Source: Clostridia bacterium
GTDB taxonomy: Bacteria; Bacillota; Clostridia; Oscillospirales; CAG-272
Assembly: GCA_017502135.1 (NCBI GenBank)
Contig: JAFVVP010000004.1
Coordinates: 47,923 to 111,922, forward strand
Direction: 5' to 3'
Length of the DNA stretch: 64,000 bases
The stretch's first letter is position 1. Every line of letters starts with the position of its first letter. Under the pieces are notes generated by a model, which saw nothing but the letters and a program-made list of their open reading frames with translations, searched no databases and was not told the origin of the DNA. Below, one piece after another: positions 19,482 through 64,000 of this stretch. The translations under genes were made by a program, and so were the position numbers.

Positions 19482-19483
19482 GC

Positions 19484-20944
19484 TTATTCGGCGGAGGGAT
19501 CTCTTTCGACCTCGGGAAGGGAGAACCAGAACGTGCTGCCGAAGCCGACGGTGCTTGTAACGCCAAACTTTGCACCGTGGAGCAGAAGGATGTTTTTTAC
19601 AATAGACAAGCCGAGTCCGGAGCCGGAGACGGCACGTTTGTGGTAGTTTTTCACCTTGTAATAGCGATCCCAGATTTTCGAAAGCTGCTCGGCCGGGATG
19701 CCCTCACCGGTGTCGGTAATCTCTATACGGCACTGACCGTTTTTCGAAAGTTGCCGGATATTCACCTTTTTATCCTCGCCCGTGTAATTGATTGCGTTAT
19801 TTACGAGATTGTACAGCACCTGCAGAATTTTCGATTTATCCGCGTATATGAATATTTCCCGATCAAAGGAGAAGGTGATCTCGTATCCGTCACGGACGGT
19901 AAGTTTTTGATAGCGCTCCAGCGTTTTTTGAACGGTATCCGTAACGGATAGAATCTCGCAGTCGAGTTTTTGCGATTCTGCGGACAGTTTCGATAAATCG
20001 AGAATATCGCCGACAAGGTCGGTAAGTCTGGCTGTCTCGTCAATAATGATCTGCATATTTTCAGCCGTCATCTCGCCGGGAATGTCGCGCATCACCTGAC
20101 TGTATCCCGAGATCATGGTGAGCGGCGTTCGGAGATCGTGCGAGATGTTGGCGAGCAGTTCCTTCTGCATCGTGTCAATGGTGGAAAGTTCTCCCGCGGC
20201 GTAGTTGAGCGCGTCGCCGAGTTCTGCTATTTCTTTCACACTGCCGCCGTCAAAGCAGACGTCGTACGTGCCCTCTGCGAGTTTTTTTGCTTCTTTACTC
20301 ATCTGAACGATGGGGCGGGAGATGGCGCCGGAGACGATCACAGCAGTGATACCGGCGAACAAAAGGAGGACTCCCGTGATGATACCGAGCTGCAGGGTGA
20401 GCGTGTCGGTGGTTGTGCCGATCGGCTCGATCTCCGCATTCAGAAGAATGAGAAACGCTTTTCCGTCCGATGTAACGGTCATCTCGGAGGTGATGATGCT
20501 CTCGGGGATGTTGTCGGCATTATCAGCGTTGCGGCCGGTCAGGAAATTGCCCGCGATGCGTTCCGTGTAGAATCCGTCCGTCAGCGCGTTCGTGTACAGT
20601 CGGTTCATCATCGAATCGGACGCGAGGTTGTGGAGAATACAACTGCTTTGGATATGTGAGGAGGCGCACAGATGCGCGCTCTGGCCTCGGATTTCATAAA
20701 CGGATATGCATATATTTTTGGACTGTGCGAGGGAGTCGGAGAGGGAAGAGAGGGCATCCCCGCTCGCGTCCCTTGCGAGCGTCTCAGAAACTGTCCTAAG
20801 CTCGTGTGTTTTTATGGATGCGTACATCGGTTTGAGCATGAAGATTTGAAAAAACCACAGAACGGACAGAATCACGAGCACAAAAACGGCAAGGAGCAGA
20901 AAGATGTGCCGCCTGAGAGGGCGGTGCATACCTGTGTTTTTCAT
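19484..20944 (-). CDS. Sensor histidine kinase (HAMP, HisKA, HATPase)
   Basis: ANISHDLRTPLT, NLVNNAINY, DTGEGI, GSGLGLSI. Confidence 0.95.
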   Translation of the reverse strand: MKNTGMHRPLRRHIFLLLAVFVLVILSVLWFFQIFMLKPMYASIKTHELRTVSETLARDASGDALSSLSDSLAQSKNICISVYEIRGQSAHLCASSHIQSSCILHNLASDSMMNRLYTNALTDGFYTERIAGNFLTGRNADNADNIPESIITSEMTVTSDGKAFLILLNAEIEPIGTTTDTLTLQLGIITGVLLLFAGITAVIVSGAISRPIVQMSKEAKKLAEGTYDVCFDGGSVKEIAELGDALNYAAGELSTIDTMQKELLANISHDLRTPLTMISGYSQVMRDIPGEMTAENMQIIIDETARLTDLVGDILDLSKLSAESQKLDCEILSVTDTVQKTLERYQKLTVRDGYEITFSFDREIFIYADKSKILQVLYNLVNNAINYTGEDKKVNIRQLSKNGQCRIEITDTGEGIPAEQLSKIWDRYYKVKNYHKRAVSGSGLGLSIVKNILLLHGAKFGVTSTVGFGSTFWFSLPEVERDPSAE

Positions 20945-21636
20945 TGTACGTGCTCCGTATCAAAGCGGTAGCCCATGCCGCGGAGCGTAACGATGTACGA
21001 GGCATACGGACCGAGGCTCTTTCGTAGAAGTTTGATGTGCGTGTCGAGGGTGCGGTCATCACCGTAGTAGTCGTACCCCCAGACCTCAGAGAGGAGCTTG
21101 TCTCTCGATAGGGCAATGTTCTTGTTTTTCAGCATATAGAAAAACAAATCGTATTCTTTCGGGGACATCTCAATCCGCTCCCCGTCAATGTAGACGATCC
21201 TGGCGGTAAGATCGGCGCGCAGTCCGCCGAGATCGACTACTTCATTTTTTGACTGTTCGTCTGTCGGTTTGCCTGTTTGCACCCGCTTCATAACGGCGGC
21301 GATGCGGAGCATCAGTTCCTTCGGGGAAAAGGGCTTTACAACGTAATCGTCTACGCCTACCTCAAAACCGTTGATCTTATCGTATTCCTCGCCGCGTGCG
21401 CTGAGCATGATGATCGGGACATCCGAAAATTTGCGAATCTCGCGGCAGGCGGAGAATCCGTCGAGCTCGGGCATCATAATGTCCATGATAACGACGTCGA
21501 AACGGCCGTTTCGGCAAAGCTCCACGGCAGTCATGCCGTCGCCGGCTTCGGTTACGCTGTGTCCTTCGTAGGTCGCGTATTTGATAATCATACGGCGTAT
21601 CATTTCCTCATCGTCTACAACGAGAATGTTATACAT
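20941..21636 (-). CDS. OmpR-family response regulator
   Basis: VVDDE, DIMMP, KPF, RTLDTHIK; AAAGGAG RBS before ATG at 21636. Confidence 0.95.
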   Translation of the reverse strand: MYNILVVDDEEMIRRMIIKYATYEGHSVTEAGDGMTAVELCRNGRFDVVIMDIMMPELDGFSACREIRKFSDVPIIMLSARGEEYDKINGFEVGVDDYVVKPFSPKELMLRIAAVMKRVQTGKPTDEQSKNEVVDLGGLRADLTARIVYIDGERIEMSPKEYDLFFYMLKNKNIALSRDKLLSEVWGYDYYGDDRTLDTHIKLLRKSLGPYASYIVTLRGMGYRFDTEHVQ

Positions 21637-21668
21637 TATGATCTCCTTTCGGTGTCGGTTCATATGTG

Positions 21669-23210
21669 TTACGGGTGGGCCGTGCGGTAAATTTCGTAAG
21701 TATAGGTGTGCCCGTTCTGTACAAATTCAAACGTATTTTTTCCGGGCACAAGATGGACGCGGACGGAGAAGTAGCCGCCCGTCGTACGAGCGACCGGCTT
21801 TCCGTTCATGGTGAGCGGCTTGTCCGGCGAGGACGCGCCGATGAGATACGTCTCCGCCGTGCTCACGGACGATCCGGCGATCGGCGAGGATACTTGCACG
21901 GAAAGGCCGGTGGGCGACGGTTCCGTGTAGATAATTGCGTCGGTGAACACGTCCGCAAGTTCGCCTATGATTCCGTGGGCATCGCGGCGGATCTCATCGT
22001 ATCCGTAGAAAATACTGCCGCGATAGGTGAGTTCGTGCCGTCCGTAGAGAACCTGTTCTTTTATCTCCCCTTTGGGGTTCGTCCACTCTTCATAGTTGTG
22101 TGCGGCGTGCGATATGAGAAGATCCGTGCCTGTGCCGTCAAGAATTTTGTTCCACCATCGAACGAGTTCGTCAAACGGGGCGCTCTCAGAGGAGAAGCGC
22201 CAATAGATCTGCGGCGCAATATAATCGACGTAGCCGCCACGAGCCCACGCTACAGGATCGGCGTAAACGGTAGAATACGCCTCCATTCCACGGGTCGGTG
22301 AGCCTCCGTTTTTGCCGTTATCATTCTGCCAGATTCCAAACGGTGCTATGCCGAAGCGGAGATCTTCGCTGACGCTTTTGACGGTGTCATACACGAGCCG
22401 TACGGTGTCGTTAACGTTCTGTCGCCGCCAATCGGCAAGGGACATATCCCCGCCGTAAAGCGAAAAGGATGCGGTGTCGTCAAACCCGGCGGTGATGCCG
22501 TTCTCATCTTTTTCGGGATACGGATAGAAATAATCGTCGAACAGAATGCCGTCCACGTTGTAGTTTTGAACGATCTCGCGAACCCCGTCCGCTATAAGTT
22601 TTCTGACCTCGGGCAGGCCGGGATCAAAATAGAGAATTCCGTCAGCGTACGGAATCGTCCATTCGGGATGGAGTTTCGCCGGACTGTTTTCGGGAATCTT
22701 TTCCCACTTAGTGCTCGTGGCGGCACGGAACGGATTTACCCAGGCATGGACGAAAATGTTTCGTTTGTGGCCTTCTTCGACGATATACTCGAGCGGATCA
22801 AACGTCAGTTCGCCGTCTGTCGTGAGATAAGCCGACACCGGAAAAATATCGGAATCGTACAGAGCATCCGCGACGGGACGTGCCTGAAAATATACCGTGT
22901 TCAACCCGGCTTCAAGAACCGTGTCGAGGATGGCATCAATTTCCGCTTTGAGAGCGGCTGTGGTAAGATTCGGTTTTGAGGGGAAATCGATATTATAAAC
23001 CGTGGCAATATAGACACCGCGTACCTCACTTGCGGGATCAATGATGGCACGGAGTATGGGCGCTTCGGGCGTTGTTTCCATAGGGAGTGAACCGCCCGAG
23101 AGGGACGTCTCTCCGTTTTTGCAGGCGGTACAAAGGAGCATCGACGCAAAAAAGAGGAGCATTAGAAAAGCGTGGGTGAGACGCTTTTTTGTCGTCGGGC
23201 AAATCTGCAT
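21669..23210 (-). CDS. Glycosyl hydrolase-like family 10 (YngK/DigH-like) lipoprotein
   Basis: Lipobox CTAC, RGVYIATV, FQARP, HAWVNPF, DGILFDDYFYP, DYIAPQIYW. Confidence 0.88.
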   Translation of the reverse strand: MQICPTTKKRLTHAFLMLLFFASMLLCTACKNGETSLSGGSLPMETTPEAPILRAIIDPASEVRGVYIATVYNIDFPSKPNLTTAALKAEIDAILDTVLEAGLNTVYFQARPVADALYDSDIFPVSAYLTTDGELTFDPLEYIVEEGHKRNIFVHAWVNPFRAATSTKWEKIPENSPAKLHPEWTIPYADGILYFDPGLPEVRKLIADGVREIVQNYNVDGILFDDYFYPYPEKDENGITAGFDDTASFSLYGGDMSLADWRRQNVNDTVRLVYDTVKSVSEDLRFGIAPFGIWQNDNGKNGGSPTRGMEAYSTVYADPVAWARGGYVDYIAPQIYWRFSSESAPFDELVRWWNKILDGTGTDLLISHAAHNYEEWTNPKGEIKEQVLYGRHELTYRGSIFYGYDEIRRDAHGIIGELADVFTDAIIYTEPSPTGLSVQVSSPIAGSSVSTAETYLIGASSPDKPLTMNGKPVARTTGGYFSVRVHLVPGKNTFEFVQNGHTYTYEIYRTAHP

Positions 23211-23363
23211 AAGTGATAACTCCGTTTTGATAGATTGGGAGCGGTAAAATCTTGCCCCCATCATCAGTATATGAGCGTGGGACAAGATATAGTATCTGTA
23301 CTCTATCTTATCATATTCGCAGTCGAAATCAAGAGATTTTTTGTGAATATTCACGAAACAAGA

Positions 23364-23448
23364 AAAAAAGGAGTTGTTGCATTAATAAAAGCAACAACTC
23401 CGCTTTACACAAACATTTGGGGCTGTCGAATCTAAACGCAACAGCCCC
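23364..23448 (-). terminator. Two hairpins after the M23 gene, the distal one terminator-like
   Basis: GGAGTTGTTGC...GCAACAACTCC with T tract on minus strand, and GGGGCTGT...ACAGCCCC. Confidence 0.65.
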
Positions 23449-23456
23449 TTGAGGTA

Positions 23457-24179
23457 TCAGCCTTCGTATGCGTTGTCAACGGTACCGATCAGCATAAAAT
23501 CCGACGGATTGACGCTTACGCCGTCGATGAGAAGCTCGTAATGCAGATGCGGTGCTTCGGCAAGCTCGATCAGTGCACTCTCCCCGACGGAGCCGATCAC
23601 ATCTCCCGCCTGCACCGTGGCACCGGTGGTGATTTCAAAAGGCAGTTCCGGTGCGAGGTTTTTGTAGATGCTGACGGCTTTTCCTGCGTGGGCGATCCGG
23701 ATGCACTTGCCCATCATGGGGTCTTCCCATACTTCTGTCACCGTTCCGTCGGCAGTAGCGCGAATCGGTGTGCCGAGTTCAGCGGCAATATCTATGCCGC
23801 CGTGCGTGCGGTAATCGTCCATCGTGAGAGAGTATACGGGTACTTCCGTGCTATACTCATAAGAGATAACACCGCTCATAGGGGCGATAAAATCGGGGAT
23901 TGCATCAAAGGTGTTGACCGCTGCCGTGTTCTCCGGTTCGGTGGATGCGGTGGTGTCGGCGGTTTCGGTGCCGGCGGTGGTATTCTCGGGGTGTACCGTG
24001 GGACGCTCGGGGTCATCTTCTGTTACGGTGCTGTCGGAGACGACGGGCGGCTGTTCGGTTTGCTTCTTTTGCCCACCGAGGGTGGTCAGAAGGATCATTA
24101 CTACTGCAAACACGGCGATTACGGCTAGCGATAAAACGAGAACGCGGGTTTGCTTTTTTGCATTTGTGCTGTTGTTCAT
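23457..24179 (-). CDS. spoIIQ: M23 (LytM) domain membrane protein, clostridial SpoIIQ-like
   Basis: N-terminal TM, Thr-rich linker, YSLTMDDYRTHGGID and HLHYE Zn motifs; sigmaF-like promoter upstream. Confidence 0.7.
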   Translation of the reverse strand: MNNSTNAKKQTRVLVLSLAVIAVFAVVMILLTTLGGQKKQTEQPPVVSDSTVTEDDPERPTVHPENTTAGTETADTTASTEPENTAAVNTFDAIPDFIAPMSGVISYEYSTEVPVYSLTMDDYRTHGGIDIAAELGTPIRATADGTVTEVWEDPMMGKCIRIAHAGKAVSIYKNLAPELPFEITTGATVQAGDVIGSVGESALIELAEAPHLHYELLIDGVSVNPSDFMLIGTVDNAYEG

Positions 24180-24241
24180 AAGATTGCCTTTCTCCCCGGT
24201 CGAAAGTCAGCCGGGGCCTTTCGGATTTCTTTGTGCAACGC

Positions 24242-24383: not shown

Positions 24384-25004
24384 ATGATTAAACTCGAAAG
24401 AACTTCTGTAATGAATCTGGAAAATGCCCTTCGAGGTATGCGCAATCCTCTGAACAGCTGGAACAAATGCGACAGCGCGTACAACGAAAACGGTGAATTT
24501 ATCGTAGGCGAGAACGACCTTGATCTCGGCGGCAGACTTGCCCGCTCCGGATCGGATCACCGCAAATTTCTCCGCCAGATCTTCGTATGTGTGGATATTA
24601 CCGCCCCCCTCTACTGGTGGAAGGAGTTTGACACGTATAAAGTAGGAACGACCGCCAATTCGACGAGCACGATGCACAAAATCCACGCAAAACCGTTCAC
24701 CCGTGAGGACTTCAGCTCGGATCGCATGACGGATGACGCACTTGCCTGCCTCGATCAGACGATCGCTTTCCTCGAAAAGCGTCGTCTTGCCTACGTGGAG
24801 ACGAAGGAGCGCGCGCTTTGGGACGATATGATCCAGCTATTGCCTTCGTCCTATAATCAGATGCGTACCTGCACGATGAACTATGAGAACCTCGTCAATA
24901 TGTACTACGCCCGCCGCAGCCATAAACTGCCCGAATGGCATACGTACTGTGATTGGATTCTTTCTCTTCCTTATGCGGATACGTTTATTACGGTCAAAGA
25001 ATGA
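24384..25004 (+). CDS. Conserved hypothetical protein, divergent ThyX-like fold suspected
   Basis: RGMRNPLNSW, DHRKFLR, APLYWWKEFDTYKVG, LPSSYNQ, RRSHKLPEW; promoter TTGACT-17-TATAAA at 24308-24336. Confidence 0.6.
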   Translation: MIKLERTSVMNLENALRGMRNPLNSWNKCDSAYNENGEFIVGENDLDLGGRLARSGSDHRKFLRQIFVCVDITAPLYWWKEFDTYKVGTTANSTSTMHKIHAKPFTREDFSSDRMTDDALACLDQTIAFLEKRRLAYVETKERALWDDMIQLLPSSYNQMRTCTMNYENLVNMYYARRSHKLPEWHTYCDWILSLPYADTFITVKE

Positions 25005-46128: not shown

Positions 46129-46130
46129 AG

Positions 46131-46203: not shown

Positions 46204-47472
46204 TTACGACAGCATAATTTTTATGATCTCTGCATCGGTTTTTCGCATACCCTCGGCGGCGAGACGGCTGACGTTTTGAATGGTGTTTTCCACACCCTTG
46301 CTGACAATGCCGTCTCCGCCCACGAACTGGCTGCCTTCTCTAAACATCTGCATGCCGAGGATGCCTGCATCTACCGCAGACACGATCTTTGCGGCACAGC
46401 TGGCCTTCGCACCGTCGCAGATGACACCCGAATTAATAGCGAGTGCATTAACTATTGTGTGGGCGATCTCGCGGAATTTGCCGCCGTACAGATACGTTAT
46501 GCCGGCGGCCGCACCGCAGCCTGCACTGATGACGCCGCAATAGGCGCTCAGTGGGCCGATGCCGCTCTTCAGATGGAGCGTTACCAGATTCGATACGGCA
46601 AGTGCTCGGTATAACCGTTCTTCGGATGCCCCCAGCTCGCGTGCGTAGATCACAACAGGCACCGAAGCGGTAATCCCTTGATTGCCGGAGCCGGAATTGA
46701 TAACGACTGGCTTTTCGCATCCGCCCATACGCGCGTCCGAGGCGGCTGCCGCGTAGGCTTTCGCGCGGGTAAGGACGTCATTTCCGTTTGCCTTGAGGAG
46801 CACTTGTCCGATGCGAGCGCCGTAGCTGTTTTTAAGTCCTTCCTCGGCGATGGCCATGTTGTAGGCAATCTGGCAATCAAAAATATCCTTTACGTCGGCA
46901 GCTTCAAGCATGTCGGCAAAGTCTATGATGCGTTCAACCGTTAAAAGCTCTTTGTCCTCCGATGACTCCGGTGCTTGATTTTTCGGCGTGCGGCTGTAAA
47001 CAGTTTCTCCGTCCCGTGAGATAGAGACGATGTTGGTGTGATTCCCTGCTATTCGGCATGATGCCGTGTGTCCGCCTTTCGTAAGGGAAATGAAAATATC
47101 AAAGAGCGCACCTGATTCCGACTCCTGCACCGTGAAGGCGGCGCTGTTCAAATATGCGGTGATCTGTGCGCGGTTTTCATCGGTAACCTCGCTTATGACC
47201 AAAAGCTGACGGGCAGGGTCGCCTGCGATGATGCCGGCCGCGGCTGCAGCCTCAAGCCCGCGCAGGCCTCCCGTGTTGGGCACGACCACGCTTTTTACGT
47301 TTTTGATTATGTTGGCGCTGACGCAGATATCCACCGTGTCGGGAAGACAGCCAAGTTCCCGTGCGGCCGCCGCTGCGGCGTAAGCCACGGCAATGGGCTC
47401 CGTGCATCCCATAGCGGGCACAAGTTCCCGCTTCAAAAGGCGAACGTAGGCTTCGTAAATATGTTCTTCCAT
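46204..47472 (-). CDS. L-cysteine desulfidase / serine dehydratase alpha family Fe-S protein (CdsB/CyuA-like)
   Basis: PAMGCTEP, SDARMGGC, SGSGNQG, SAYCG, CDGAKASC. Confidence 0.88.
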   Translation of the reverse strand: MEEHIYEAYVRLLKRELVPAMGCTEPIAVAYAAAAAARELGCLPDTVDICVSANIIKNVKSVVVPNTGGLRGLEAAAAAGIIAGDPARQLLVISEVTDENRAQITAYLNSAAFTVQESESGALFDIFISLTKGGHTASCRIAGNHTNIVSISRDGETVYSRTPKNQAPESSEDKELLTVERIIDFADMLEAADVKDIFDCQIAYNMAIAEEGLKNSYGARIGQVLLKANGNDVLTRAKAYAAAASDARMGGCEKPVVINSGSGNQGITASVPVVIYARELGASEERLYRALAVSNLVTLHLKSGIGPLSAYCGVISAGCGAAAGITYLYGGKFREIAHTIVNALAINSGVICDGAKASCAAKIVSAVDAGILGMQMFREGSQFVGGDGIVSKGVENTIQNVSRLAAEGMRKTDAEIIKIMLS

Positions 47473-51642: not shown

Positions 51643-52842
51643 ATGCAAAAAATTCAAATGAAAACACCGCTCGTCGAGATGGACGGCGACGAAATGACGC
51701 GAATCCTTTGGAAGCAAATCAAGGACGAACTGATTCTGCCTTTCGTGGATCTGAAGACCGAATACTATGATCTCGGCCTGCCCGAGCGCGAGCGCACGAA
51801 GGATCAGGTAACGATCGACGCTGCAAACGCCAACAAAAAATACGGTGTTGCCGTTAAATGTGCCACCATCACGCCCAACAAACAGCGCGTGGAGGAGTAT
51901 AACCTCACCGAGATGTGGAAGAGCCCGAACGGCACGATCCGTGCTGTCCTTGACGGAACGGTGTTCCGTACGCCTATCCTCATAGACAGTATCAAACCCG
52001 CCGTCCGTAACTGGAAGCGTCCGATCACGATCGCGCGCCACGCGTACGGCGACGTTTACAAGTCCACCGAGTACCGCGTGCCGGGAGAGGGAAAAGCGGA
52101 ACTTATGTTCACCGCCAAGGACGGAACCCGGTACCGTCAGACGATCTACGATTTTGAGTGCAGCGGCGTTCTTCAGGGTCAGTACAACAAGGACACCTCT
52201 ATCCGTTCGTTTGCACATTCGTGCTTTCAATATGCGATCAATACGAAGCAGGATCTGTGGTTCTCGACGAAGGACACGATCTCCAAGCAGTACGACCAAA
52301 CCTTCAAACTCATCTTTGAGGAGATTTATGAAAGCGAGTACAAGGACGAGTTCGGAAAACTCGGCATCGAGTATTTTTACACGCTGATCGACGATGCGGT
52401 AGCCCGCGTTATTCGCAGTGAGGGCGGTTTCATCTGGGCGTGCAAGAACTACGACGGTGACGTCATGAGCGATATGGTCTCGACGGCGTTCGGCTCGCTC
52501 GCTATGATGACCTCCGTTTTGGTATCTCCCGACGGGAACTACGAGTACGAAGCGGCGCACGGCACGGTTACGCGTCACTATTACCGTTATCTCAAGGGTG
52601 AGGAGACATCGACCAACCCCATGGCGACGATCTTTGCCTGGACGGGCGCACTCCGCAAGAGAGGTGAACTGGACGGACTTTCCGATCTCAGGGCTTTTGC
52701 GGATAAACTCGAAGCCGCCTGCATTAAAACGCTTGACGACGGCATCATGACGAAGGACCTCGCCGGACTCGTCGACGATACGGCGAAGGTGAAAGCGGTC
52801 AACAGCCTTGCATTTTTGAAGGCGATCAGAGACAGAATGTGA
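51643..52842 (+). CDS. icd: NADP-dependent isocitrate dehydrogenase
   Basis: [29 protein letters not shown]. Confidence 0.96.
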
Positions 52843-52874
52843 TTACCATGCTTTCACACAATAAAAGGATAAAA

Positions 52875-52910
52875 GGAAATGCCCGCGTCTTAGGCGCGGG
52901 TGTTTTCTTG
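52875..52910 (+). terminator. Rho-independent terminator
   Basis: TGCCCGCGTC-TTA-GGCGCGGGTG followed by TTTTCTT. Confidence 0.7.
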
Positions 52911-53015
52911 TTCTTGTAATTTTATGAAATATGTGCTACAATAATATGGAAAAGATGATCGTGATGTGTCTTTTTAATGGAAGATTACTCTGGTCAAAAA
53001 ACGGGGGGATTTGTA

Positions 53016-54842
53016 ATGCAGAAGAAACGCTTTTTTGGTGCCGTGGAATGGACACTTTTGATTGGTGCCATCGGTGCTTCCATACTCCTTTTGTCATACA
53101 TTACGCTTTACAGTGATGACTACCAGTATGCTACTTATTTTTACGGCGGCCTGCGTGGCTTTTGGGACAAGACGGTTGAACACTATCTTACCGTGAACGG
53201 CCGTGCTTTGATCCACTTTTTTGCTGAAGTCTTTTTGATTTTCGGCACAAAGCTCTACGCGATCGTTTTTCCTTTTATGATGGCGTTTTCATTTTTTCTT
53301 GCACACAAAGTGCAGAATGAAAATACGCGCCAATTTTCCCCACTGGCTGTAGCTGTGCCCCTATGTCTTTTCCTTGCCTTGCCCGTCGTTTATCTCAATC
53401 AAACTTTTCTTTGGATTGCGGGCTCCTTTAACTACTGCTTCCCGGCTTTACTCGTGTTTGCTTATTTTGCCGCCGAGCAGCGCGCTGTCGCGGGGCGGGG
53501 CATTTGGCTTTCTTGCCTTTTGGGCTTTTTCGCAGGTGCCACCACGGAGCAAAACGGTCTTATGGCGCTCGTCGGCGGATCTCTGATCGCAATTATCGGT
53601 ATTCTTCGGGCGCCGCGTAAAAAACGCCCTTTTCGATCTCTTTGTTCCGTTTTGTTTGTTCTTGCGGGTTATCTCTCTGTTATGCTTTCCCCCGGCACGT
53701 TCAGCCGTGTTTCTTTCGACGGGGAGGACGTTGGACTCTTATCGGTTATCTTAAATCCCGGGCTTCTTGCCCGTCGCTTTTATTCTGTCATGGCGTATTT
53801 CTGCGGGACAGATCGATCTATGCCCGGCGCTACCTTTCTGTTAACAGTCCTGATTCTCCTTTTGAGCTTCCTGCCGATCATTTGTGGCTCAAAAAGACTT
53901 CGCCCGCTTTTAATCGGTCTTCCCGTTGCCGCGTCTTATCTTATGCTTTTGTTTTTCGGTAACGGCAAACTGACGGCAGGTATTCTGCAGCTCATCGTGT
54001 GCGGATACCTTGCTTTTGCAGGTATCCTTCTTCTCTTTGAGCGCGAGTTTTCAACGAGCGGCGTGTTCCTTATAGCAGGTCTTGCATCCATCGGGATAAT
54101 GGTTTTCACCAATCTCGGTGCATACCGCACCGTCGTCCCCACGCTCATTATGCTGATTGCCGTGATCGTGCGCTTGTGCGAGGTTTATTTTGAGCGCGTA
54201 CCGCAACTTTGGCGGGTAGTGATCGGTGTAGTTGTGATCATGCTTTGTGCATTGGCGGCTTTGCCCACTTTCCGAGGTTATCGAGTCAACAGTGTCGTCG
54301 CCGAACAAAACGAGGCGGCCATTGCTGAAGGGCTTAAAACGGGAGAAATCACCCTTTGCACGGATTATCTTGACACCTACCGTCATACCTTGATGTTTGA
54401 AGGCGGCTATTTCTTCACCCAATTCCGCCTTTGTTACGGTATTCCATCCGATATGCCTGTTCACCTTGAGGGGGAGCATTTCGCACATTGGCCTGTCGTA
54501 ATGGATGAAATCACTTTCCGTAATCACGCTATGATGACCAATTCTGTTCTGTATCTTCCTATGCGAGAGCTCATCGAGTTTTACGGTGCCTCGTTCGTGT
54601 GGGATTTTGAACGCGGAACTGGATTCTATATAAACCGCGGCGGTGAGCAGTATTATCTTTCAAGGATTGATAACACGATCAAAAGGCTTTCGGACGGTGA
54701 AGTAGTAACGGATGAGTGTTACACAATAGGCGTGACCGATCGCGACTATATGGAAATCCACGCAGCAGCCGATTTCTTCGGATTCACGTACACGTTCGAT
54801 TGGCAGACCGTTACCGTTTTTCCGGAAGTGATAAACGAATAA
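53016..54842 (+). CDS. Multi-TM protein (DUF6056/GT-C-like) with a C-terminal extracellular domain
   Basis: SDDYQY, NGR, FLWIAGSFNY, TTEQ, SPG motifs; C-terminal YLPMRELIEFYGA stalk-like motif. Confidence 0.6.
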   Translation: MQKKRFFGAVEWTLLIGAIGASILLLSYITLYSDDYQYATYFYGGLRGFWDKTVEHYLTVNGRALIHFFAEVFLIFGTKLYAIVFPFMMAFSFFLAHKVQNENTRQFSPLAVAVPLCLFLALPVVYLNQTFLWIAGSFNYCFPALLVFAYFAAEQRAVAGRGIWLSCLLGFFAGATTEQNGLMALVGGSLIAIIGILRAPRKKRPFRSLCSVLFVLAGYLSVMLSPGTFSRVSFDGEDVGLLSVILNPGLLARRFYSVMAYFCGTDRSMPGATFLLTVLILLLSFLPIICGSKRLRPLLIGLPVAASYLMLLFFGNGKLTAGILQLIVCGYLAFAGILLLFEREFSTSGVFLIAGLASIGIMVFTNLGAYRTVVPTLIMLIAVIVRLCEVYFERVPQLWRVVIGVVVIMLCALAALPTFRGYRVNSVVAEQNEAAIAEGLKTGEITLCTDYLDTYRHTLMFEGGYFFTQFRLCYGIPSDMPVHLEGEHFAHWPVVMDEITFRNHAMMTNSVLYLPMRELIEFYGASFVWDFERGTGFYINRGGEQYYLSRIDNTIKRLSDGEVVTDECYTIGVTDRDYMEIHAAADFFGFTYTFDWQTVTVFPEVINE

Positions 54843-54864
54843 TGTTTTGTTTTAGTACAAAAAC

Positions 54865-54899
54865 AAAAGGCTCAGAATCTTATGATTCTGAGCCTTTTT
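54865..54899. terminator. Bidirectional terminator / palindromic repeat copy 2
   Basis: AAAAGGCTCAGAATC...GATTCTGAGCCTTTT. Confidence 0.8.
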
Positions 54900-54994
54900 G
54901 CGAGTAATGAATGCGTTAAAGGAGTTATGCGTCAGATCGCCGTTTCGTCAGTGCGATAGATCTGCTGTTTCCTATCAGAATGCAGGACAATCAA

Positions 54995-56257
54995 TTAAAA
55001 CAGAATAACAAGAAATTGAGAAACCAAAACAACCGCAACGAGCGCGATCGGATAGGTTGCTGCATAGGCAGAGGCAACGTCCTCCGTTTTTGCCACGTTG
55101 ATCAGGGTACCAAGCGCAGGAGTACTCGTCATACCGCCGGTGAGAGAACCGAGATTGTTGAGAAGACTCATCTTAAGGACATATTTCGCGAAGAAATAGC
55201 CGGCGATAAGCGGGATGCCGGTCATGATAACACCGTAAACGAAATACATAGGATCGAAGTTTGCGATGAATTCCGCGCCGCCGGGGATACCCGCACCGAC
55301 AAGGAAGAGTACCAATCCAAGTTCACGGAAGAGTTTCAAAGTTCCGATGCCGGGCATAAGATTGATGCGGCCGATTCTGCCGAAGTGTCCGAGAACAAGG
55401 CTCGTGAGAAGGCATCCGCCGGTTGTGGTGAGCGAAAAGCACGTACCCGAAAGGCCGGCCGAGGAGAGCGGTATCTTAATCTGACCGACAACTGTACCAA
55501 TGATGGCTGCAAGCGCGAATGCAGCAATGCCCATGTGGTCAATTTCAAACAGCCTCGTAATAACGGATTCTTTCGAGTCTTCTTTTTTTACGAGGAGAAG
55601 TTCTCTTTCTTTGTCCATATTCGCTTTTACCATTTTAGGAATCAGCTGAACGAAGAGAACGACACCCACAACGCCGAATATGTAAGCAATTCCGTGGCCT
55701 ACGGAAACAAGGCCTACGTACTCGGGGGCAACGGTTGCCTTTGCTGCCGCAAAAGCAGGCGTGGATGTAAGAGAGCCGGAGAGAAGTCCTACGATCATGG
55801 CTACAAAGCCATCCTGTTCGGTGATCGTCGCACCGTAGCCGAGTACTTCGCCGAGTCCTATGCAGCCGGCAGCGGCCGCGCCGCCCGCTAAGATAACGAT
55901 AAGACCGAGAAGAACGTAGGATTTGAAGTTTTTCTTGAAATTCCCGAAAAACTTCGGACCGGCTATAAAGCCAACGGATGTTACAAAGAGGATAAGACCG
56001 AGAGCTTCTATTAGCGAAAGACCGCTTGTAAAATCGTACGGCTTTGCGGATGCACTGAAATGCAGCGCACCTTCCGTATTTACTTGGAAAAACAGCGCGC
56101 CGAAAATAAGCGCTACGATAAATACACCGGCATCACCGAGGGAAATGCCCTTGATCGTAATTCTGCCGAGTGCGTAGCCGAGAAGAAGTACGGTAAATAC
56201 CACAAACAACAGGGTATAGATATTACTGATGGAAATAACACCGCCAAATAAACTCAT
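54995..56257 (-). CDS. Aspartate:alanine antiporter (AAE, YidE/SucE-like) family transporter without TrkA-C domains
   Basis: Duplicated GSLTSTPA / GGMTSTPAL, YAATYP, LGYALGRI. Confidence 0.85.
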   Translation of the reverse strand: MSLFGGVISISNIYTLLFVVFTVLLLGYALGRITIKGISLGDAGVFIVALIFGALFFQVNTEGALHFSASAKPYDFTSGLSLIEALGLILFVTSVGFIAGPKFFGNFKKNFKSYVLLGLIVILAGGAAAAGCIGLGEVLGYGATITEQDGFVAMIVGLLSGSLTSTPAFAAAKATVAPEYVGLVSVGHGIAYIFGVVGVVLFVQLIPKMVKANMDKERELLLVKKEDSKESVITRLFEIDHMGIAAFALAAIIGTVVGQIKIPLSSAGLSGTCFSLTTTGGCLLTSLVLGHFGRIGRINLMPGIGTLKLFRELGLVLFLVGAGIPGGAEFIANFDPMYFVYGVIMTGIPLIAGYFFAKYVLKMSLLNNLGSLTGGMTSTPALGTLINVAKTEDVASAYAATYPIALVAVVLVSQFLVILF

Positions 56258-56271
56258 TCTGTTATCCCTCC

Positions 56272-57876
56272 TTAAATATTTTCCTGTTTTGTGTAGTTTG
56301 GCAGGAGTTTCGGGGAAACGGTTTCCGTTTTGATTCCCGCATCGGCGAGCATCGCTTCAAATTTTGCAATATGATCGAGCGTGAGCTTGCCGACGGTGGT
56401 CTCTTTAGCGACAGCGGCTGCGTGCTGACCTGCATTTCTGCCGAAAACAATAATGTCAAGAAGGCTATTGCCCATCAGTCTGTTTTTGCCGTGAATGCCG
56501 CCAACGGCTTCGCCTGCGACAAAGAGGTTCTTCACGTTTGTGGTTTCGCCGTTAACTTTAATGTCGAGACCGCCGTTCTGGTAGTGCAGGGTAGGATAAA
56601 TGAGAATCGGTTCCTTGCGGATATCAATGCCGTATTTACCGAACATACGCATCATCGCGGGAATTCTCTTTTCGATCGTGCCTTCACCGCCGATTTTTTC
56701 AATCATAGGTGTGTCGAGCCATACAGCCTGACCGTTTCCTGTATCGACGCCGTTACCGCGCTCAGAGCATTCGCGGATGACGGAGGCAGCGGTAACATCG
56801 CGGGTTTCCAAGGGGTGCATAAATACTTCGCCATTTTTATTGACGAGTTTAGCACCGAGGGAACGGACCTTTTCGGTTACGAGCGCGCCGAAAATCTGTG
56901 TGGGATAGGCAGCGCCGGTGGGGTGATACTGAAGTGTTTCCGCATAGAGAAGTTTTGCGCCCGCGCGGTAGCCGAGAACAAGGCCGTCAGCGGTTGCACC
57001 GTAGTGGTTAGAGGTTGGGAAGCCCTGGTAGTGCATACGACCTGCGCCACCGGTTGCGATAATGACGGTTTTTGCCTTCGCAACGAGGAGTTCCTTTGTC
57101 TCCATATTCATAAGAACCGCCCCGGCTGCCGCACCGTTTTCATCGAGAATAAGCTCGATTGCCGCCGTGAAGTCAACAACGGTGATGCCGCGGTTGAGAA
57201 CTTCATCGCGGAGGGTTCTCATAATTTCGGCACCGGAGTAGTCCTTTGCCGCATGCATACGCTTGCGGGACGTACCGCCGCCGTGTGTTGTGATCATGGT
57301 GCCGTCCGGTTCCTTGTCAAACTCTACGCCCAGTTCAGACAGCCACCGGATCGCCTCGGGGGCGTCGCACACCAGTTTTGCAAGCAGATCACGCTTTGCG
57401 GAAAAGTGGCCGCCGCCGAATGCGTCGACAAAGTGGATCGCGGGTGAGTCGTTGGGCTTATCAGCCGCCTGAATACCGCCCTCTGCCATCATTGTGTTGG
57501 CATCACCCATACGAAGTTTGGTAACAATCATAACGTCAGCGCCTGCTTCATGTGCTTCGATAGCCGCGGCGGTACCCGCACCGCCGCCGCCGATGATGAG
57601 CACGTCGGTTTCGTAATCGGGTGCGGAGAGGTTTACGCTGTCTGCAGTGATGCGGCTGTGTGCCTGGAGCGTCGCCGCAAGTTCTTTCGGAACCTTTTCT
57701 CCTTTGTTAGGACCTACTGTGAGCGTTTCGAACTCATCCGTTTTATAGTCGGGATGGAAAGTGGACAGCACTTGCTCCTTTTGCTCGGCGGTCATGCGGG
57801 CCGGCTCGAACGCAATATTCTTTTCTCTTGCGGCTTCTACAAGCGCGAGAGATTCCTTAAACTGTTCAGAATACAT
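56272..57876 (-). CDS. Soluble fumarate reductase/succinate dehydrogenase-like flavoprotein subunit
   Basis: GGGGAG, ANTMMAEGG, QYHPT, TEKVR, TRD, HYQNGG, HGKNRLMGNSL. Confidence 0.88.
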   Translation of the reverse strand: MYSEQFKESLALVEAAREKNIAFEPARMTAEQKEQVLSTFHPDYKTDEFETLTVGPNKGEKVPKELAATLQAHSRITADSVNLSAPDYETDVLIIGGGGAGTAAAIEAHEAGADVMIVTKLRMGDANTMMAEGGIQAADKPNDSPAIHFVDAFGGGHFSAKRDLLAKLVCDAPEAIRWLSELGVEFDKEPDGTMITTHGGGTSRKRMHAAKDYSGAEIMRTLRDEVLNRGITVVDFTAAIELILDENGAAAGAVLMNMETKELLVAKAKTVIIATGGAGRMHYQGFPTSNHYGATADGLVLGYRAGAKLLYAETLQYHPTGAAYPTQIFGALVTEKVRSLGAKLVNKNGEVFMHPLETRDVTAASVIRECSERGNGVDTGNGQAVWLDTPMIEKIGGEGTIEKRIPAMMRMFGKYGIDIRKEPILIYPTLHYQNGGLDIKVNGETTNVKNLFVAGEAVGGIHGKNRLMGNSLLDIIVFGRNAGQHAAAVAKETTVGKLTLDHIAKFEAMLADAGIKTETVSPKLLPNYTKQENI

Positions 57877-58570: not shown

Positions 58571-58580
58571 TCACCGTCCA

Positions 58581-60432: not shown

Positions 60433-61423
60433 GATCGAAGCCTCCTTTCACAACGTCAGAGGGCTCGGGATCATCCAGACTGAAGTTAACAAGCGGTGCA
60501 CGCTGATTGTCGTATTCGCCTGCCTGGTACTCTCCGTACGTTTCATTCATATCTTTGATGAACTTACGGTTCAACAGGTGAAGCGGGATGTTCTGCGGGC
60601 ATACGCGTGAGCATTCGCCGCAGTCCGTGCATCTGCCCGCTACGTGGTACGCGCGGATGATGTGGAACAGCTTTTCTTCAAATTCTCCGCCGGGTGCTTT
60701 GCTCTGTACGCCGGAGTTCGGATTGTCAAATACGCACTTTTCGCAGGTGCAAGCAGGACATGCATCGCGGCAAGCATTACAGCGGATGCAGCGGGAGAGT
60801 TCGTTCTGCCAGAAAGCAAAACGTTCGTCTGCACTCAGCGCTTCAATCTTTTCAACTTCGTCAAAACGGTTGGAGGTGAGAACCTCGCCCTCGTCTCCGA
60901 TAAGCTCGTCGTATGCAACGTGTTTCTTTGATTTGCAGTTGAGACAGCGTTCCGTGAGAACCTCGGCGCAGCTTACCGATATCGGTTCGTCATCATAGAG
61001 CGTATGAACGAGAAGGGAATTCTCGCACGCTTCGATTGCCGTGATACCTTCACCGACGATCTTGCGGATTTTTTGAATATCTGCCATGCCACTGCAAGGT
61101 ATGCCGATCGCGTACACCTTTTCGCGGTCGAAGCGATGCTCAGAAAGGAGCTGGTTGAAACTGTATGTATCACAGGGCTTCAAAAATACAAGAATCTTAC
61201 CGTCGATCTCGCGGGTTTTCTTGAGAAGATATTTTGAAAGGTTCGCTCCGGAGAAATCGTTGTAGATAAAGCCTTCGGTCAGTTCCTCGGCGGCTGTGAA
61301 GACTGCGGGTGTCAGATCGTAGTCAAATTCGCCGCGTTTCCAGCCGAGAACAGCGGCAACGGTGCCTTCGCCGAGCAGGGATGCTGCGCGCTCGCACAAT
61401 GATTTGGTTGTTACTGTTTGCAT
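60425..61423 (-). CDS. 4Fe-4S dicluster subunit (FlxC/D-like)
   Basis: KPCD, CIRCNACRDACPACTC, HVAGRCTDCGECSRVCP. Confidence 0.78.
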   Translation of the reverse strand: MQTVTTKSLCERAASLLGEGTVAAVLGWKRGEFDYDLTPAVFTAAEELTEGFIYNDFSGANLSKYLLKKTREIDGKILVFLKPCDTYSFNQLLSEHRFDREKVYAIGIPCSGMADIQKIRKIVGEGITAIEACENSLLVHTLYDDEPISVSCAEVLTERCLNCKSKKHVAYDELIGDEGEVLTSNRFDEVEKIEALSADERFAFWQNELSRCIRCNACRDACPACTCEKCVFDNPNSGVQSKAPGGEFEEKLFHIIRAYHVAGRCTDCGECSRVCPQNIPLHLLNRKFIKDMNETYGEYQAGEYDNQRAPLVNFSLDDPEPSDVVKGGFDRA

Positions 61424-61848
61424 CGCAGATCCTCCAATCTTTTGTTCGGGCCAAGCGCCGTAACTTTTTCTACAAACTCGTTCATCGTAGCGGCAAATTT
61501 CGCACCTTCGGCGGCGGATACCCACTCAACACGCGTGCGGTCACGCTCAATGCCAAGAAAATCAAGCATCGAGAAGAGCATCGACATACGGCGGCGGGTG
61601 TAGTAGTTGCCGGTGGAATAGTGGCAGTCGCCCGGATGACATCCGCAAAGGATTACGCCGTCCGCGCCGCGCTGAAATGCGCGAAGGATAAACATAGGAT
61701 TGACACGACAGGAGCAGGGTACGCGAATGATTTTTACGTCAGCCGGGTATGCGAGGCGATTGCTTCCTGCAAGGTCTGCACCGGCGTATGAGCACCAGTT
61801 GCAGCAGAATGCAACGATAACGGGCTTGAATTCTTTTACATCTTGCAT
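61411..61848 (-). CDS. mvhD: MvhD-like [2Fe-2S] subunit
   Basis: FCCNWCSYAGAD, RVPCSCR, GCHPGDCHY, WVSAAEG. Confidence 0.92.
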   Translation of the reverse strand: MQDVKEFKPVIVAFCCNWCSYAGADLAGSNRLAYPADVKIIRVPCSCRVNPMFILRAFQRGADGVILCGCHPGDCHYSTGNYYTRRRMSMLFSMLDFLGIERDRTRVEWVSAAEGAKFAATMNEFVEKVTALGPNKRLEDLRCKQ

Positions 61849-63833
61849 ATTGCATCCACCTCCGCCATGATTTGATTGTTTTTAAATCCGTTCAGATCCA
61901 TTGCACCGGACGGGCAGGCAACCGTACAAGCACCGCATCCCTGACAAACTGCAGGATTGACCGAGGCAACACGTCGGAGCTTTGTCGTGCGGTCAGGCAT
62001 TCTGAATTCTTTTTCTTCATAAGTGATAGCGCCGTACGGACAGACGCGTTCACAGCTTGAACAGCCGTTGCACATCAGCTCATTAGACTGTGCGATGCAC
62101 GGGTTACCGGTCAGATGATCCTTAACAAGAAGACCGATGACTTTAGAAGCCGCGGCACTTGCCTGGGATACCGTTTCGGGAATATCCTTCGGGCCCTGGC
62201 AGCAGCCGGAAAGGAATACGCCGGCAGTGGGGGATTCCACGGGACGTAGTTTCGGGTGCGCTTCGGTGAAGAAATCGTTTGTGTCCATAGAAGCTGTCAG
62301 CATGGTAGCCAGCGGTCGGGCGGACTTGTCCGGCTCGATTGCCGCCGCGAGAACGACGAGATCGGCGTCGATGTGAAGCTGCTTTCCGTTTATGAGATCG
62401 GATGCCTGTACCAGCAGCTTTTTACCCTCCGGAACGACCTTCCCCACCATACCTTTGATGTAATGCACGCCGTACTCTTCCACCGCGCGGCGGTAGAATT
62501 CGTCAAACGCCTTACCGGGGGTACGTACGTCAATATAGAACACGTAAACGTCGGTATCGGGGTATTTATCACGGATAAGCATTGCGTGCTTTGCCGTGTA
62601 CATACAGCAGATTTTTGAGCAGTATTCTTTGCCTTTTTCGGCGCAGTTTTCGCATCTGGAGCCGACACACTGTACGAAAACGATCTTATGCGGATGCTCA
62701 CCGTCGGAAGGGCGGAGCAGTTTTCCGGAAGTAGGGCCTGCCGCATTGGTGAGACGTTCGAACTCAAGAGAGGTAATGACGTCCTTTGACTGGCTGTACG
62801 CGAACTCGTCGAACTTCTCCATGGAGATGGGGTTGTAGCCGGTTGCAACGACGATCGCACCGTATTTTTCCTTTACAAACTCGTCTTTTGCATTGTAATC
62901 GATGGCGCCGGCGGTGCACACCTTGGCACATACACCGCACTTGCCGGTTTTCAGCATAGTGCAGTAATCGGCATCAATGGTTGCGACCTTCGGTACGGCC
63001 TGCGCAAACGGAATATAAATAGCGCGGCGGTTGTCCATACCGAGATTGAATTCGTTGGGGACTTTCTTCTGCGGGCACTTTTCCGTACAGAGTCCGCATC
63101 CGGTACAAATATCTTCCTTTACGTAACGTGCCTTGCGCTTGATGGTAACGTCGAAGTTACCAACGTAACCGCCGACCTCCGTTACTTCGCTGTAAGAATA
63201 GATGCGGATATTTTCGTTTTGTGCCGCATCGACCATTTTCGGAGTGAGAATACACGCGGCGCAGTCGAGCGTAGGGAAAGTCTTATCCAGCTGCGCCATC
63301 TTGCCGCCGATAGTGGGCTTTTTTTCTACGATATCAACGGGGAAACCTGCATCGGCAATATCGAGCGCGGTCTGAATACCCGCAATACCGCCGCCGATCA
63401 CGAGCGCGCGCTTGGTGACGGTTGATTGACCGGGAGTAAGCGGGGCGTTGAGGTTTACCTTAGCCACGGCTGCTTTGCCGAGGATAATAGCTTTTTCCGT
63501 GCCGGAAAGCATATCCTTATGTATCCAGGAGCATTGCTCGCGGATGTTGGCGATCTCCACCATGTACGGATTGAGTCCGGCGGCCGCCGCTGTTTTACGG
63601 AAGGTTGCTTCGTGCATACGGGGTGAGCAGGAGCAGACAACGATGCCGGTCAAAGAATGTTCGTGGATCGCATTTTTGATAATATCCTGACCCGCCTGGG
63701 AGCACATATACTGATAATCGGTGGAAAAGACCACACCGGATTCCGTTTTGAGTGCTTCTGCAACGGCGTGAACATCTACGGTGCCCGCAATATTCGAGCC
63801 GCACCAGCATACAAATACGCCAATTCTTTGCAT
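61836..63833 (-). CDS. hdrA: Heterodisulfide reductase subunit A
   Basis: GVFVCWCGSNI, CSPRMHE, NIREQCSW, GGGIAG, KTFPTLDC, QCVGSR, CSKICCMY. Confidence 0.96.
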   Translation of the reverse strand: MQRIGVFVCWCGSNIAGTVDVHAVAEALKTESGVVFSTDYQYMCSQAGQDIIKNAIHEHSLTGIVVCSCSPRMHEATFRKTAAAAGLNPYMVEIANIREQCSWIHKDMLSGTEKAIILGKAAVAKVNLNAPLTPGQSTVTKRALVIGGGIAGIQTALDIADAGFPVDIVEKKPTIGGKMAQLDKTFPTLDCAACILTPKMVDAAQNENIRIYSYSEVTEVGGYVGNFDVTIKRKARYVKEDICTGCGLCTEKCPQKKVPNEFNLGMDNRRAIYIPFAQAVPKVATIDADYCTMLKTGKCGVCAKVCTAGAIDYNAKDEFVKEKYGAIVVATGYNPISMEKFDEFAYSQSKDVITSLEFERLTNAAGPTSGKLLRPSDGEHPHKIVFVQCVGSRCENCAEKGKEYCSKICCMYTAKHAMLIRDKYPDTDVYVFYIDVRTPGKAFDEFYRRAVEEYGVHYIKGMVGKVVPEGKKLLVQASDLINGKQLHIDADLVVLAAAIEPDKSARPLATMLTASMDTNDFFTEAHPKLRPVESPTAGVFLSGCCQGPKDIPETVSQASAAASKVIGLLVKDHLTGNPCIAQSNELMCNGCSSCERVCPYGAITYEEKEFRMPDRTTKLRRVASVNPAVCQGCGACTVACPSGAMDLNGFKNNQIMAEVDAICKM

Positions 63834-63848
63834 GTATCTTCTCCTCTC

Positions 63849-64000
63849 TTATTTCGTGTATTTCCGGAATGCGCTGACGAGCAACTGTCCTGGCGTGTTA
63901 TCATCAAGCATCTGGGGAACGTCATCGGCAGTCATGCGGTTAGCCCCCTGCTTACGGATCGCGGTAAGACGAACTGCTTCAATGAGTTTGGCAGGCTCTA
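63849..64000 (-). CDS. hdrC: Probable HdrC C-terminus (gene runs off window end)
   Basis: Manual translation EPAKLIEAVRLTAIRKQG...PGQLLVSAFRKYTK* directly upstream of hdrA. Confidence 0.6.
   Translation of the reverse strand, partial: EPAKLIEAVRLTAIRKQGANRMTADDVPQMLDDNTPGQLLVSAFRKYTK

Follow-up and report, generated by a model that had tools for sequence, protein, structure and literature searches.

How does a spore-former make a protein from a gene whose pieces are held apart by its own core chromosome? This question is raised by a stretch of 64,000 nucleotides (the window) of the genome GCA_017502135.1 (G000) of a gut Clostridia bacterium, which carries the 3' end of the spore-coat gene cotJC beside a gene for a large serine recombinase, here called SrB. 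Insertions of the skin or SPbeta type are 14-134 kb of foreign DNA and are excised as circles. The window corresponds to positions 47923-111922 of contig C9 (171 kb) in an assembly of 10 contigs and 1.14 Mb, and was compared with 13 other genomes of the same genus. In the reading that we consider probable, a domesticated SrB together with a small accessory protein would rebuild cotJC by rearranging a large stretch of the core chromosome, whereby an inversion is somewhat likelier than an excision.

The three pieces of cotJC and the sites between them

Searching the whole assembly with PF05067 gave four matches, namely three pieces of cotJC and one intact paralogue. Piece 1 (C4:32512-32613) covers positions 1-34 of the hidden Markov model (HMM) and piece 2 (C8:18748-19068, 107 codons) positions 30-150. 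Piece 3 lies in the window at 17470-17673 on the minus strand and consists of the last 67 codons, from AAEQK to the stop (positions 145-198). Together the pieces cover positions 1-198 of the Mn_catalase HMM with breaks at codons ~34 and ~150. CotJB (7.3e-27) and CotJA (6.5e-07) are encoded upstream of piece 1 according to Pfam, which identifies a cotJABC operon. Piece 3 is the only PF05067 match on the 171-kb contig C9. An earlier note, made from the letters of the window, had stated that no 5' part of cotJC is found there, and this holds for the rest of the contig as well. The same note pictured two halves of the gene with one break; the split itself stood but the single break did not, since there are three pieces with a prophage in the first break.

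Joining the pieces in silico at both cores yields an in-frame CotJC open reading frame (ORF) of 200 aa. Its alignment with the intact CotJC of G013, G011, G010 and G001 spans 196-200 aa at 72-78% identity, without gaps in three of them and with one gap in G001. Hence a gene split in frame with a common core that restores the ORF, as in skin, SPbeta and gin, is reproduced in silico at codon ~150.

The core at this break is the 10-nt sequence CGCAGCAGAG. It is identical beside piece 3 (attR, window 17665-17674, minus strand) and beside piece 2 (attL, C8:18748-18757). On the element side of attR follows the arm AAGGTTGCTTTT (17682-17693, minus strand), which is the exact reverse complement of the attL arm AAAAGCAACCTT (C8:18723-18734) over all 12 nt. 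Both arms sit on the sides facing away from cotJC and are roughly symmetric about the core, which corresponds to an attP-type symmetry. This symmetry is kept in G004 and G007 and is less clear in G003. To judge by these motifs, the break between pieces 2 and 3 has every mark of a serine-integrase attL/attR pair.

The gene of SrB (519 aa, 17693-19252, minus strand) directly precedes piece 3. Pfam assigns Resolvase (PF00239, 1.5e-21), Recombinase (PF07508, 4.3e-26), Zn_ribbon_recom (PF13408, 2.4e-11) and, weakly, DUF4368. SrB thus combines the resolvase catalytic, recombinase and zinc-ribbon domains by which a large serine recombinase is defined. Its N-terminal block YCRLSEED including R11 and S13 is invariant across six orthologues, and S13 is presumably the nucleophile. 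Upstream lies orf47, an ORF of 47 aa (19245-19388, minus strand) whose 3' end overlaps the SrB start (ATGAATAA). It has a strong ribosome-binding site (RBS), GGGAGGTG, at 19399-19406. A possible -10 element of an orf47-SrB promoter, CATACACT, is found at 19413-19420 (minus strand) by its conservation in the alignment; the motif reads CATACACT in G000 and G004 and CATATACT in G003 and G007.

We regard orf47 as a candidate recombination directionality factor. No Pfam family was matched at E values up to 1, and an ORF of this type with 47-51 aa is conserved together with SrB across genera. A complex model of orf47 and SrB reached an ipSAE of 0.72 in three runs, the best control reaching 0.00, with a pLDDT of 74 for the partner and at least 87% of the contacts in agreement between runs. 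The mark applied to ipSAE is reached by 58 of 80 solved complexes and by 2 of 110 mismatched pairs, counts that apply roughly to the alignments of six rows used here. In the model orf47 touches SrB residues 367-398 and 465-519, i.e. the part after the zinc ribbon and the C-terminal strand. Binding of orf47 to SrB is supported by the model, albeit not shown. By analogy to GirX, which accompanies the recombinase GirC, orf47 may act as the directionality factor of SrB.

Both att sites abut core genes. Downstream of the histidine kinase gene a GC-rich hairpin followed by a T run (19447-19480, minus strand), read from the sequence, represents the terminator of the kinase-regulator operon. Here the core genes end and the recombinase unit has its edge, and an equivalent hairpin is found in G006 between the kinase gene and a MacB-type ABC transporter gene. 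On contig C8 it is this MacB-type gene that follows piece 2 after a spacer of ~240 bp. The spacer holds the att arm and then the transporter promoter region, which begins within ~60 bp of attL and is conserved in the four species. Beyond MacB, C8:1-18512 encodes PGA_cap, dpaB, dpaA, DUF378, HAD, a sigma factor, DUF512, der, plsY, nagB, nagA, greA and pgm. The partner att site thus lies outside the window and across core genes, as had been predicted, with attL abutting the block from MacB to der. The 2-kb orf47-SrB unit is the sole element-like DNA at the codon-~150 break. No discrete foreign element was found between the sites: attL leads into 18.5 kb of core genes and the SrB unit into the kinase terminator and at least 104 kb of core genes. 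Since the DNA between attL and attR is core chromosome, the reaction would rearrange a large chromosomal segment.

The first break is of the ordinary kind. At codon ~34 a complete-looking tailed prophage is inserted, which encodes a 484-aa serine integrase (SrA) convergent with piece 1, and moreover terminase, portal, head-protease, tape measure, baseplate, tail fibre, methyltransferases and a LexA-like repressor. Its parts are C4:1-32512 and C8:19069-20479 (loci L041, L042, L006, L002). The core is GGCGGTCC(C/G)GATGGC with inverted arms. In G003 the two ends of this prophage A are 37 kb apart in direct orientation on a single contig, and G006 carries an SrA-type integrase (65% identity) beside piece 1.

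Conservation of the unit in related genomes

SrB orthologues are present in three of the 13 same-genus genomes, with identities of 92% in G004, 65% in G003 and 64-65% in G007. These three share both junctions, namely piece 2 followed by MacB to der, and SrB followed by piece 3, yebC, argS and prs. A junction of pieces 2 and 3 is absent from the assemblies of all four species. Six of the 13 genomes have an intact cotJC; the remaining four have none, paralogues only or piece 1 only. The distance from SrB to the kinase gene is 230 bp in G000, 4.7 kb in G004 and 7 kb in G003. The expectation that the recombinase and the 3' piece are inherited vertically as a unit with varying spacing was hence borne out.

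Pieces 2 and 3 are under strong purifying selection. The ratio of nonsynonymous to synonymous substitution rates (dN/dS) is 0.00-0.05 for piece 2 and 0.009-0.038 for piece 3 at dS of 0.24-2.9 (six species pairs per piece), and neither stops nor frameshifts occur in these pieces across the four species. The frame of piece 3 is open for 92 aa from stop to stop, and an ORF of at least 50 aa starting with ATG, GTG or TTG is not found in it. It has no RBS and starts 20 nt past the SrB stop in a different frame. As piece 3 is untranslatable alone and has been under strong selection since before the four species diverged, it must still join a translated gene. Judging from the sequences, rejoining of the DNA by the adjacent recombinase would be the evident route by which it becomes translated.

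The stretch between SrB and the kinase gene contains further genes in two of the sister species. In G004 (L010 3737-8415) and G003 (L008 11742-18760) an AraC regulator, a GFO/MocA oxidoreductase, amidohydrolases and a DegT-like aminotransferase are encoded, and G003 adds a BNR-repeat protein; the genes were named from their translations, plus a weak tblastn match to a GFO gene. This cluster of 4.7-7 kb is missing from G000 and from the spacers between kinase and MacB genes in G006 and G009. For this small metabolic cluster phage cargo was considered and rejected. The cluster may be old cargo of the element or a later insertion. In G007 (contig C214, L012 7850-11135) an insert of 1.4 kb lies between SrB and the real 3' piece of cotJC. 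It contains an XRE-HTH/TPR-like gene (384 aa) and, beside SrB, a degenerate duplicate of the first 33 codons of piece 3, so that the real attR arm and core are 1.4 kb away from the SrB gene.

Relatives of SrB with 63-67% identity are found at 80 or more loci in Oscillospiraceae, Lachnospiraceae and other Clostridia. Among the matches listed, 77 of 80 family loci have a cotJC fragment beside the recombinase. About 52 of the 80 resemble G000 in that the 3' piece lies just downstream on the same strand, and in about 18 the recombinase is convergent with the 5' part; these counts are approximate, as the script left six loci unclassified, some of them with cotJC matches. Of 77 loci examined, 40 have a small ORF upstream that carries the motif [YF]T..W. 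Three break sites (codons ~33, ~63 and ~150) recur across the family. In G425 (C2:546618-597100) cotJC is even split into four direct pieces (HMM 1-34, 29-66, 59-150 and 146-198) by three elements of ~4, 23 and 23 kb.

Where both halves share a contig, elements at codon 150 are usually direct insertions, 4-40 kb long, that bear defence or mobile cargo. Among them are those of G118 with 40 kb (SNF2, methylase, endonuclease, RecQ, AbiEii-like), Roseburia faecis with 24 kb, C. fessum with 20 kb, G427 with 10.5 kb and L066 with ~4 kb. In G279, whose halves lie on two contigs, restriction-modification (RM), Fic and Pycsar genes are found at both ends.

Inverted layouts occur as well. In G426 (L116, C1:143108-146375) cotJA, cotJB and the 5' part of cotJC face SrB and the 3' part head to head, 2.7 kb apart, at site ~150 and with matching arms. 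From its sequence this locus resembles a small invertible switch of which the recombinase gene is itself a part. In G133, from another genus of the family, the halves at codon ~33 are inverted and 108 kb apart (C3:54039-54512, plus strand, and 162490-162588, minus strand; loci L035 and L036). Upstream of the 3' half are a serine recombinase, a type I RM system and PemK, and the 5' half adjoins fakA/degV. As arranged in the assembly, these halves would be rejoinable only by inversion.

Turning to the genes flanking the unit in the window, prs-like, argS and yebC (13771-17434, plus strand) are the core genes on the other side of piece 3 and convergent with it; the same flank is found in G003, G004 and G007. 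On the side of orf47, family searches identified genes for the histidine kinase (19484-20944), a response regulator (20941-21663), GHL10 (21669-23354) and an M23 peptidase (23457-24179), all on the minus strand. They open a core block that continues with miaB, mutS, mutL, rnf, aconitase, icd and hdrA (19484-64000) and that separates the cotJC pieces if the att sites are direct. Synteny of the block with G004 and G003 reaches to C9:~160 kb, and the part of the block from the kinase gene to orf211 is syntenic also with G006, G009, G010, G012 and G013.

Between 24 and 64 kb of the window the family scan covered 29 of the 34 ORFs that reach 90 aa or more. It identified MiaB, a YlbF-like protein, MutS, MutL, a NagA-like amidohydrolase, two CNNM transporters, RnfC/D/G, NusG_II, ApbE, a citrate/homocitrate-synthase-like protein, GntR, aconitase, isocitrate dehydrogenase, an AspT/YidE transporter, a fumarate-reductase-like flavoprotein, Fe-S/NAD oxidoreductases and HdrA; no family was matched by five of the scanned ORFs. 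Phage, relaxase, type IV secretion system, transposase or recombinase genes were not among these 29, in agreement with the claim that the DNA past the recombinase holds no mobile cargo. The list of genes given in the earlier note was largely recovered (two-component system, the M23 peptidase called spoIIQ-like there, miaB, mutS/mutL, rnf, tricarboxylic acid cycle (TCA) and hdr genes), apart from tgt, which was not found among the scanned ORFs.

Three ORFs of 206, 422 and 621 aa (24384-25004, plus; 46204-47472, minus; 52977-54842, plus) have no NCBIfam match. The 206-aa ORF has no Pfam match either and adjoins the M23 peptidase gene in every same-genus genome examined. Near window ~52000-57000 the gene-strand bias switches: genes are mostly on the plus strand in C9:0-100 kb and mostly on the minus strand in 100-171 kb. 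The GC skew stays weakly positive to ~120 kb of C9; the switch in strand bias may represent the replication terminus or an old rearrangement boundary.

Orientation of the att sites and alternative explanations

The two nearest genomes without SrB, G006 and G009, have the kinase gene and a MacB orthologue (78-79% identity) on the same strand ~200 bp apart (spacers 64870-65080 and 20327-20514, respectively). The spacer consists of the kinase terminator and the MacB promoter. As the two genes are neighbours there, recombination of attL with attR in G000 would recreate the order regulator, kinase, orf47-SrB-attP, MacB, i.e. the ancestral order plus an insert of 2 kb. Moreover, the yebC block of G006 lies 21 kb from the kinase-MacB pair on the same strand, whereas in G000 yebC and the kinase gene are 2 kb apart on opposite strands. 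This change is what would result from an inversion with its ends between kinase and MacB and at the 3' flank of yebC. If a single circular chromosome undergoes one reciprocal exchange between cotJC and the kinase-MacB boundary, the outcome is viable only as an inversion, since two circles would arise from a direct exchange. The comparison favours an inverted layout of attL and attR as the parsimonious one, the orientation itself being deduced from outgroup synteny. Five distant genomes with intact cotJC (G001 and G010-G013) were considered as reference for the ancestral state and proved too rearranged: their cotJ operon lies in another neighbourhood (homologues of C10:47.8-51 kb), and the neighbours of yebC and the kinase gene differ.

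On this basis the following scheme is proposed. The heritable chromosome keeps cotJC as three pieces, and the 2-kb unit of promoter, orf47, SrB and attR would serve to rejoin pieces 2 and 3. During sporulation, probably in the mother cell, SrB and orf47 would pair attR (window 17640-17700) with attL (C8:18720-18760). SrB would cut within the shared core CGCAGCAGAG and religate the ends, such that ...EDLAAE is fused to QKARVTY... in frame and attP is left between SrB and the MacB-like gene. The product would restore the ancestral neighbourhood of kinase and MacB. The prophage at codon ~34 would be removed separately by its integrase SrA. Here we infer the occurrence of the recombination, its timing, the mother cell as its place, the role of orf47 and the orientation of the sites.

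Most likely the reaction would be an inversion, spanning at least 84 kb on the contigs of G000 (at least 65.6 + 18.7 kb) and at least 275 kb in G004 (at least 255 + 20 kb), where piece 3 is located at 72.7 kb of the 327.7-kb contig C79. Otherwise a circle of at least 124 kb would be excised, calculated from at least 105.7 kb between the core and the end of C9 plus 18.7 kb on C8. A more far-reaching variant, which we put forward tentatively and hold for somewhat less than an even chance, is that the heritable chromosome itself is in an inverted state made by the recombinase. A chromosomal SrB/orf47/attP unit between kinase and MacB would once have recombined with attB in cotJC, and each sporulating mother cell would flip back at least 275 kb.

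Several observations weigh against our reading. Pieces 2 and 3 are on different contigs in all four species, and scaffolding with the contigs of G000, G003 and G004 did not provide a link between them. Contigs of the C8 type end ~1-6 kb from pgm in G000, G004 and G003; in G004 this contig (C126) starts inside a 16S rRNA gene, and in G003 (C5) it starts with htpG, a gene not found in G000 or G004. The far end of G004 contig C79 maps to C6:195-202 kb of G000, without rRNA. Adjacency of kinase and MacB is found in only two of the nine same-genus genomes without SrB; in the other seven, which are uninformative, the best MacB-like match reaches 46-54% identity and lies on a different contig from the kinase gene, or the kinase gene was not found. 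The gene orders of G006 and G000 differ further, namely at the 3' neighbour of MacB, at C9:46.4 kb and at C1:232.6/242.3 kb. These additional breakpoints imply that more than one rearrangement occurred and weaken the parsimony argument, and the additional rearrangements could have turned the att sites into direct orientation.

Related loci point in the same direction. Following a PF05067 search over 400 family genomes, 15 chosen genomes were queried for their cotJC fragments. With both halves on one contig the codon-~150 site is direct in G118, G423, G424, G425 and G427 (10-40 kb) and inverted in G426, and other break sites are direct in G041, G045, G033 and the prophage A of G003 and inverted in G133; as genomes with few or long contigs were favoured, the ratio of direct to inverted is not a fair sample. 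The assignment to the mother cell is affected by the promoter: CATACACT resembles what we take to be the -10 consensus of mother-cell sigma factors, which makes for a weak promoter assignment. Finally, neither a rejoined joint nor a loose end at the att core was found in the Logan assembled contigs of public runs, which drop rare variants, so that the missing form weighs little and is no evidence. The loose ends at window 17054, 17073, 17300, 17749 and 19761 represent branch points of unitigs and lie away from the core.

Excision is the rival that survives best, and we regard it as somewhat less likely than inversion. In this case attL and attR would be direct and the mother cell would loop out a circle of at least 124 kb with mutS, mutL, miaB, rnf, TCA genes, dpaAB, der and possibly the replication terminus. 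The characterised sporulation rearrangements (skin, SPbeta, gin) are all excisions in the parts of the literature available to us, and the codon-~150 site is direct in five of the six relatives with both halves on one contig. The strand polarity would fit, too, if the terminus is located between the sites: on C8 the minus strand appears to be leading (in G004 the 16S rRNA gene beside pgm is on this strand, and the GC skew is negative), and on C9 the plus strand up to ~100 kb, where the gene-strand bias switches. However, both GC skew and gene-strand bias are weak and fit the inverted layout equally. Starting from the ancestral adjacency of kinase and MacB, a direct exchange splits the chromosome into two circles, so that at least one further large rearrangement is needed, and the circle would strip many housekeeping genes from the mother-cell chromosome.

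It is far less probable that the locus is a relic, in which a rearrangement tore an ordinary cotJC element apart, cotJC is dead, the unit lingers and a Mn-catalase paralogue does the job. An intact paralogue of 221 aa is indeed present (C4:40190-40798, minus strand) and could replace CotJC, which also counts against our reading. Moreover G006 seems to have lost the rest of cotJC, piece 1 alone being found, and a rejoined form is missing from the public-run contigs. But the paralogue is just 34-37% identical to CotJC and has no cotJAB, and both pieces show dN/dS of 0.00-0.05 in four species at saturating dS, without stop or frameshift. SrB is intact as well (92-64% identity, invariant domains), and orf47, att arms and core are kept. 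The paralogue lies 7.6 kb from piece 1; the homologous contig of G004 has two such paralogues.

An artefact of assembly or binning, with pieces from different strains or a misjoined contig and a compact element in the real genome, is very improbable. The assembly is a metagenome-assembled genome (MAG) with a completeness of 64.6%, a further point against our reading, and the three pieces lie on three of its 10 contigs. However, both junctions are contig-internal, and the same junctions of piece 2 with MacB and of SrB, piece 3 and yebC are found in three other species, none of the four showing a junction of pieces 2 and 3. A misassembly at 19.4-19.5 kb, which the earlier note had named as a danger, was not found: contigs of the public runs X1 and X3 span window 15500-22500 unbroken with 0 differences, and unitigs of X5 and X6 bridge 18593-19790, those of X5 also 17300-17778. 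The four runs are from four studies and not fully independent, since each is flagged as a possible source of this DNA. The other danger it named, a normal compact element with one end lost, did not apply, as the partner att site is present on C8.

The least probable explanation, separate polypeptides without any DNA rearrangement, has in its favour that pieces 1 and 2 (fused in G007) have their own start and the cotJAB context, and is dismissed because piece 3 lacks start codon and RBS 20 nt past the SrB stop and piece 2 of G000 is startless, too.

Meaning and comparison with known systems

Spore-formers are known to rebuild developmental genes only by excising discrete foreign elements. In G000 the host seems to have captured this machinery: it is cargo-less, its sites lie far apart in the core chromosome, and it was inherited through at least four species, in which the gene pieces remain under strong selection. 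If our reading is true, terminal mother cells tolerate and rely on the rearrangement of 100 kb to several hundred kb, and the locus would offer a natural example of a serine integrase that works across such distances in a bacterial chromosome. The way in which a selfish element turns into a developmental gene of the host would become visible as well. If the heritable chromosome is in the inverted state, the flipped segment would make up a tenth or more of the genome, with core genes and an rRNA operon in it; bacterial development would then include a programmed inversion of the chromosome on a large scale, with the chromosome itself as the intervening element. For annotation it matters that pieces of cotJC from gut Clostridia can easily be taken for pseudogenes and that contigs breaking there mislead gene-content calls from MAGs.

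The open-access literature searched gave the known excision systems (skin, SPbeta, yin and gin) and no sporulation gene in which core chromosome separates the halves or an inversion rejoins them. Compact elements in cotJC are common; the long-range, cargo-less form is new. The compact elements share codon ~150, the recombinase family (57-67% identity) and the small upstream ORF with G000, but where measured on one contig they are 4-40 kb long, direct and cargo-bearing. A skin-like element in cotJC is described for Laceyella sacchari, as far as the part of the preprint consulted goes (Galperin et al., bioRxiv 10.1101/2022.02.25.481979).

The closest parallel to the orf47-SrB unit is gin in gerE of Bacillus cereus ATCC 10987, with the large serine recombinase GirC and the 6.5-kDa protein GirX (PMC5595907). 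According to the portion of this report at hand, a non-phage large serine recombinase and a very small protein rejoin a split mother-cell gene at a short core with inverted flanks, as SrB and orf47 would in our scheme. As described there, gin is compact and excisable with its ends together, whereas in G000 each att site adjoins core genes and at least 124 kb separate the two. orf47 has no detectable sequence family; its likeness to GirX concerns its size and proposed role.

The elements skin in sigK (recombinase SpoIVCA; in C. difficile CD1231 with the directionality factor CD1234) and SPbeta in spsM (SprA/SprB) share with G000, in the excerpts available, a recombinase gene at the element's edge directly upstream of the 3' fragment and a mother-cell target gene. 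The B. subtilis skin has 48 kb according to the same preprint part (Galperin et al., bioRxiv 10.1101/2022.02.25.481979). What is excised in these cases, as far as the excerpts go, is a prophage or prophage-like insert, as exemplified by prophage A in the first break of the G000 cotJC; at the second break the host core chromosome intervenes instead.

For inversions a parallel is found outside the spore-formers. Heterocysts of Calothrix sp. NIES-4101 restore fragmented nif genes by excisions and inversions over a 350-kb region (PMC11249958, from the part available). Cyanobacteria, other recombinases and other genes are concerned there, but as in our scheme site-specific recombination restores fragmented genes in a terminally differentiated cell, inversions included.

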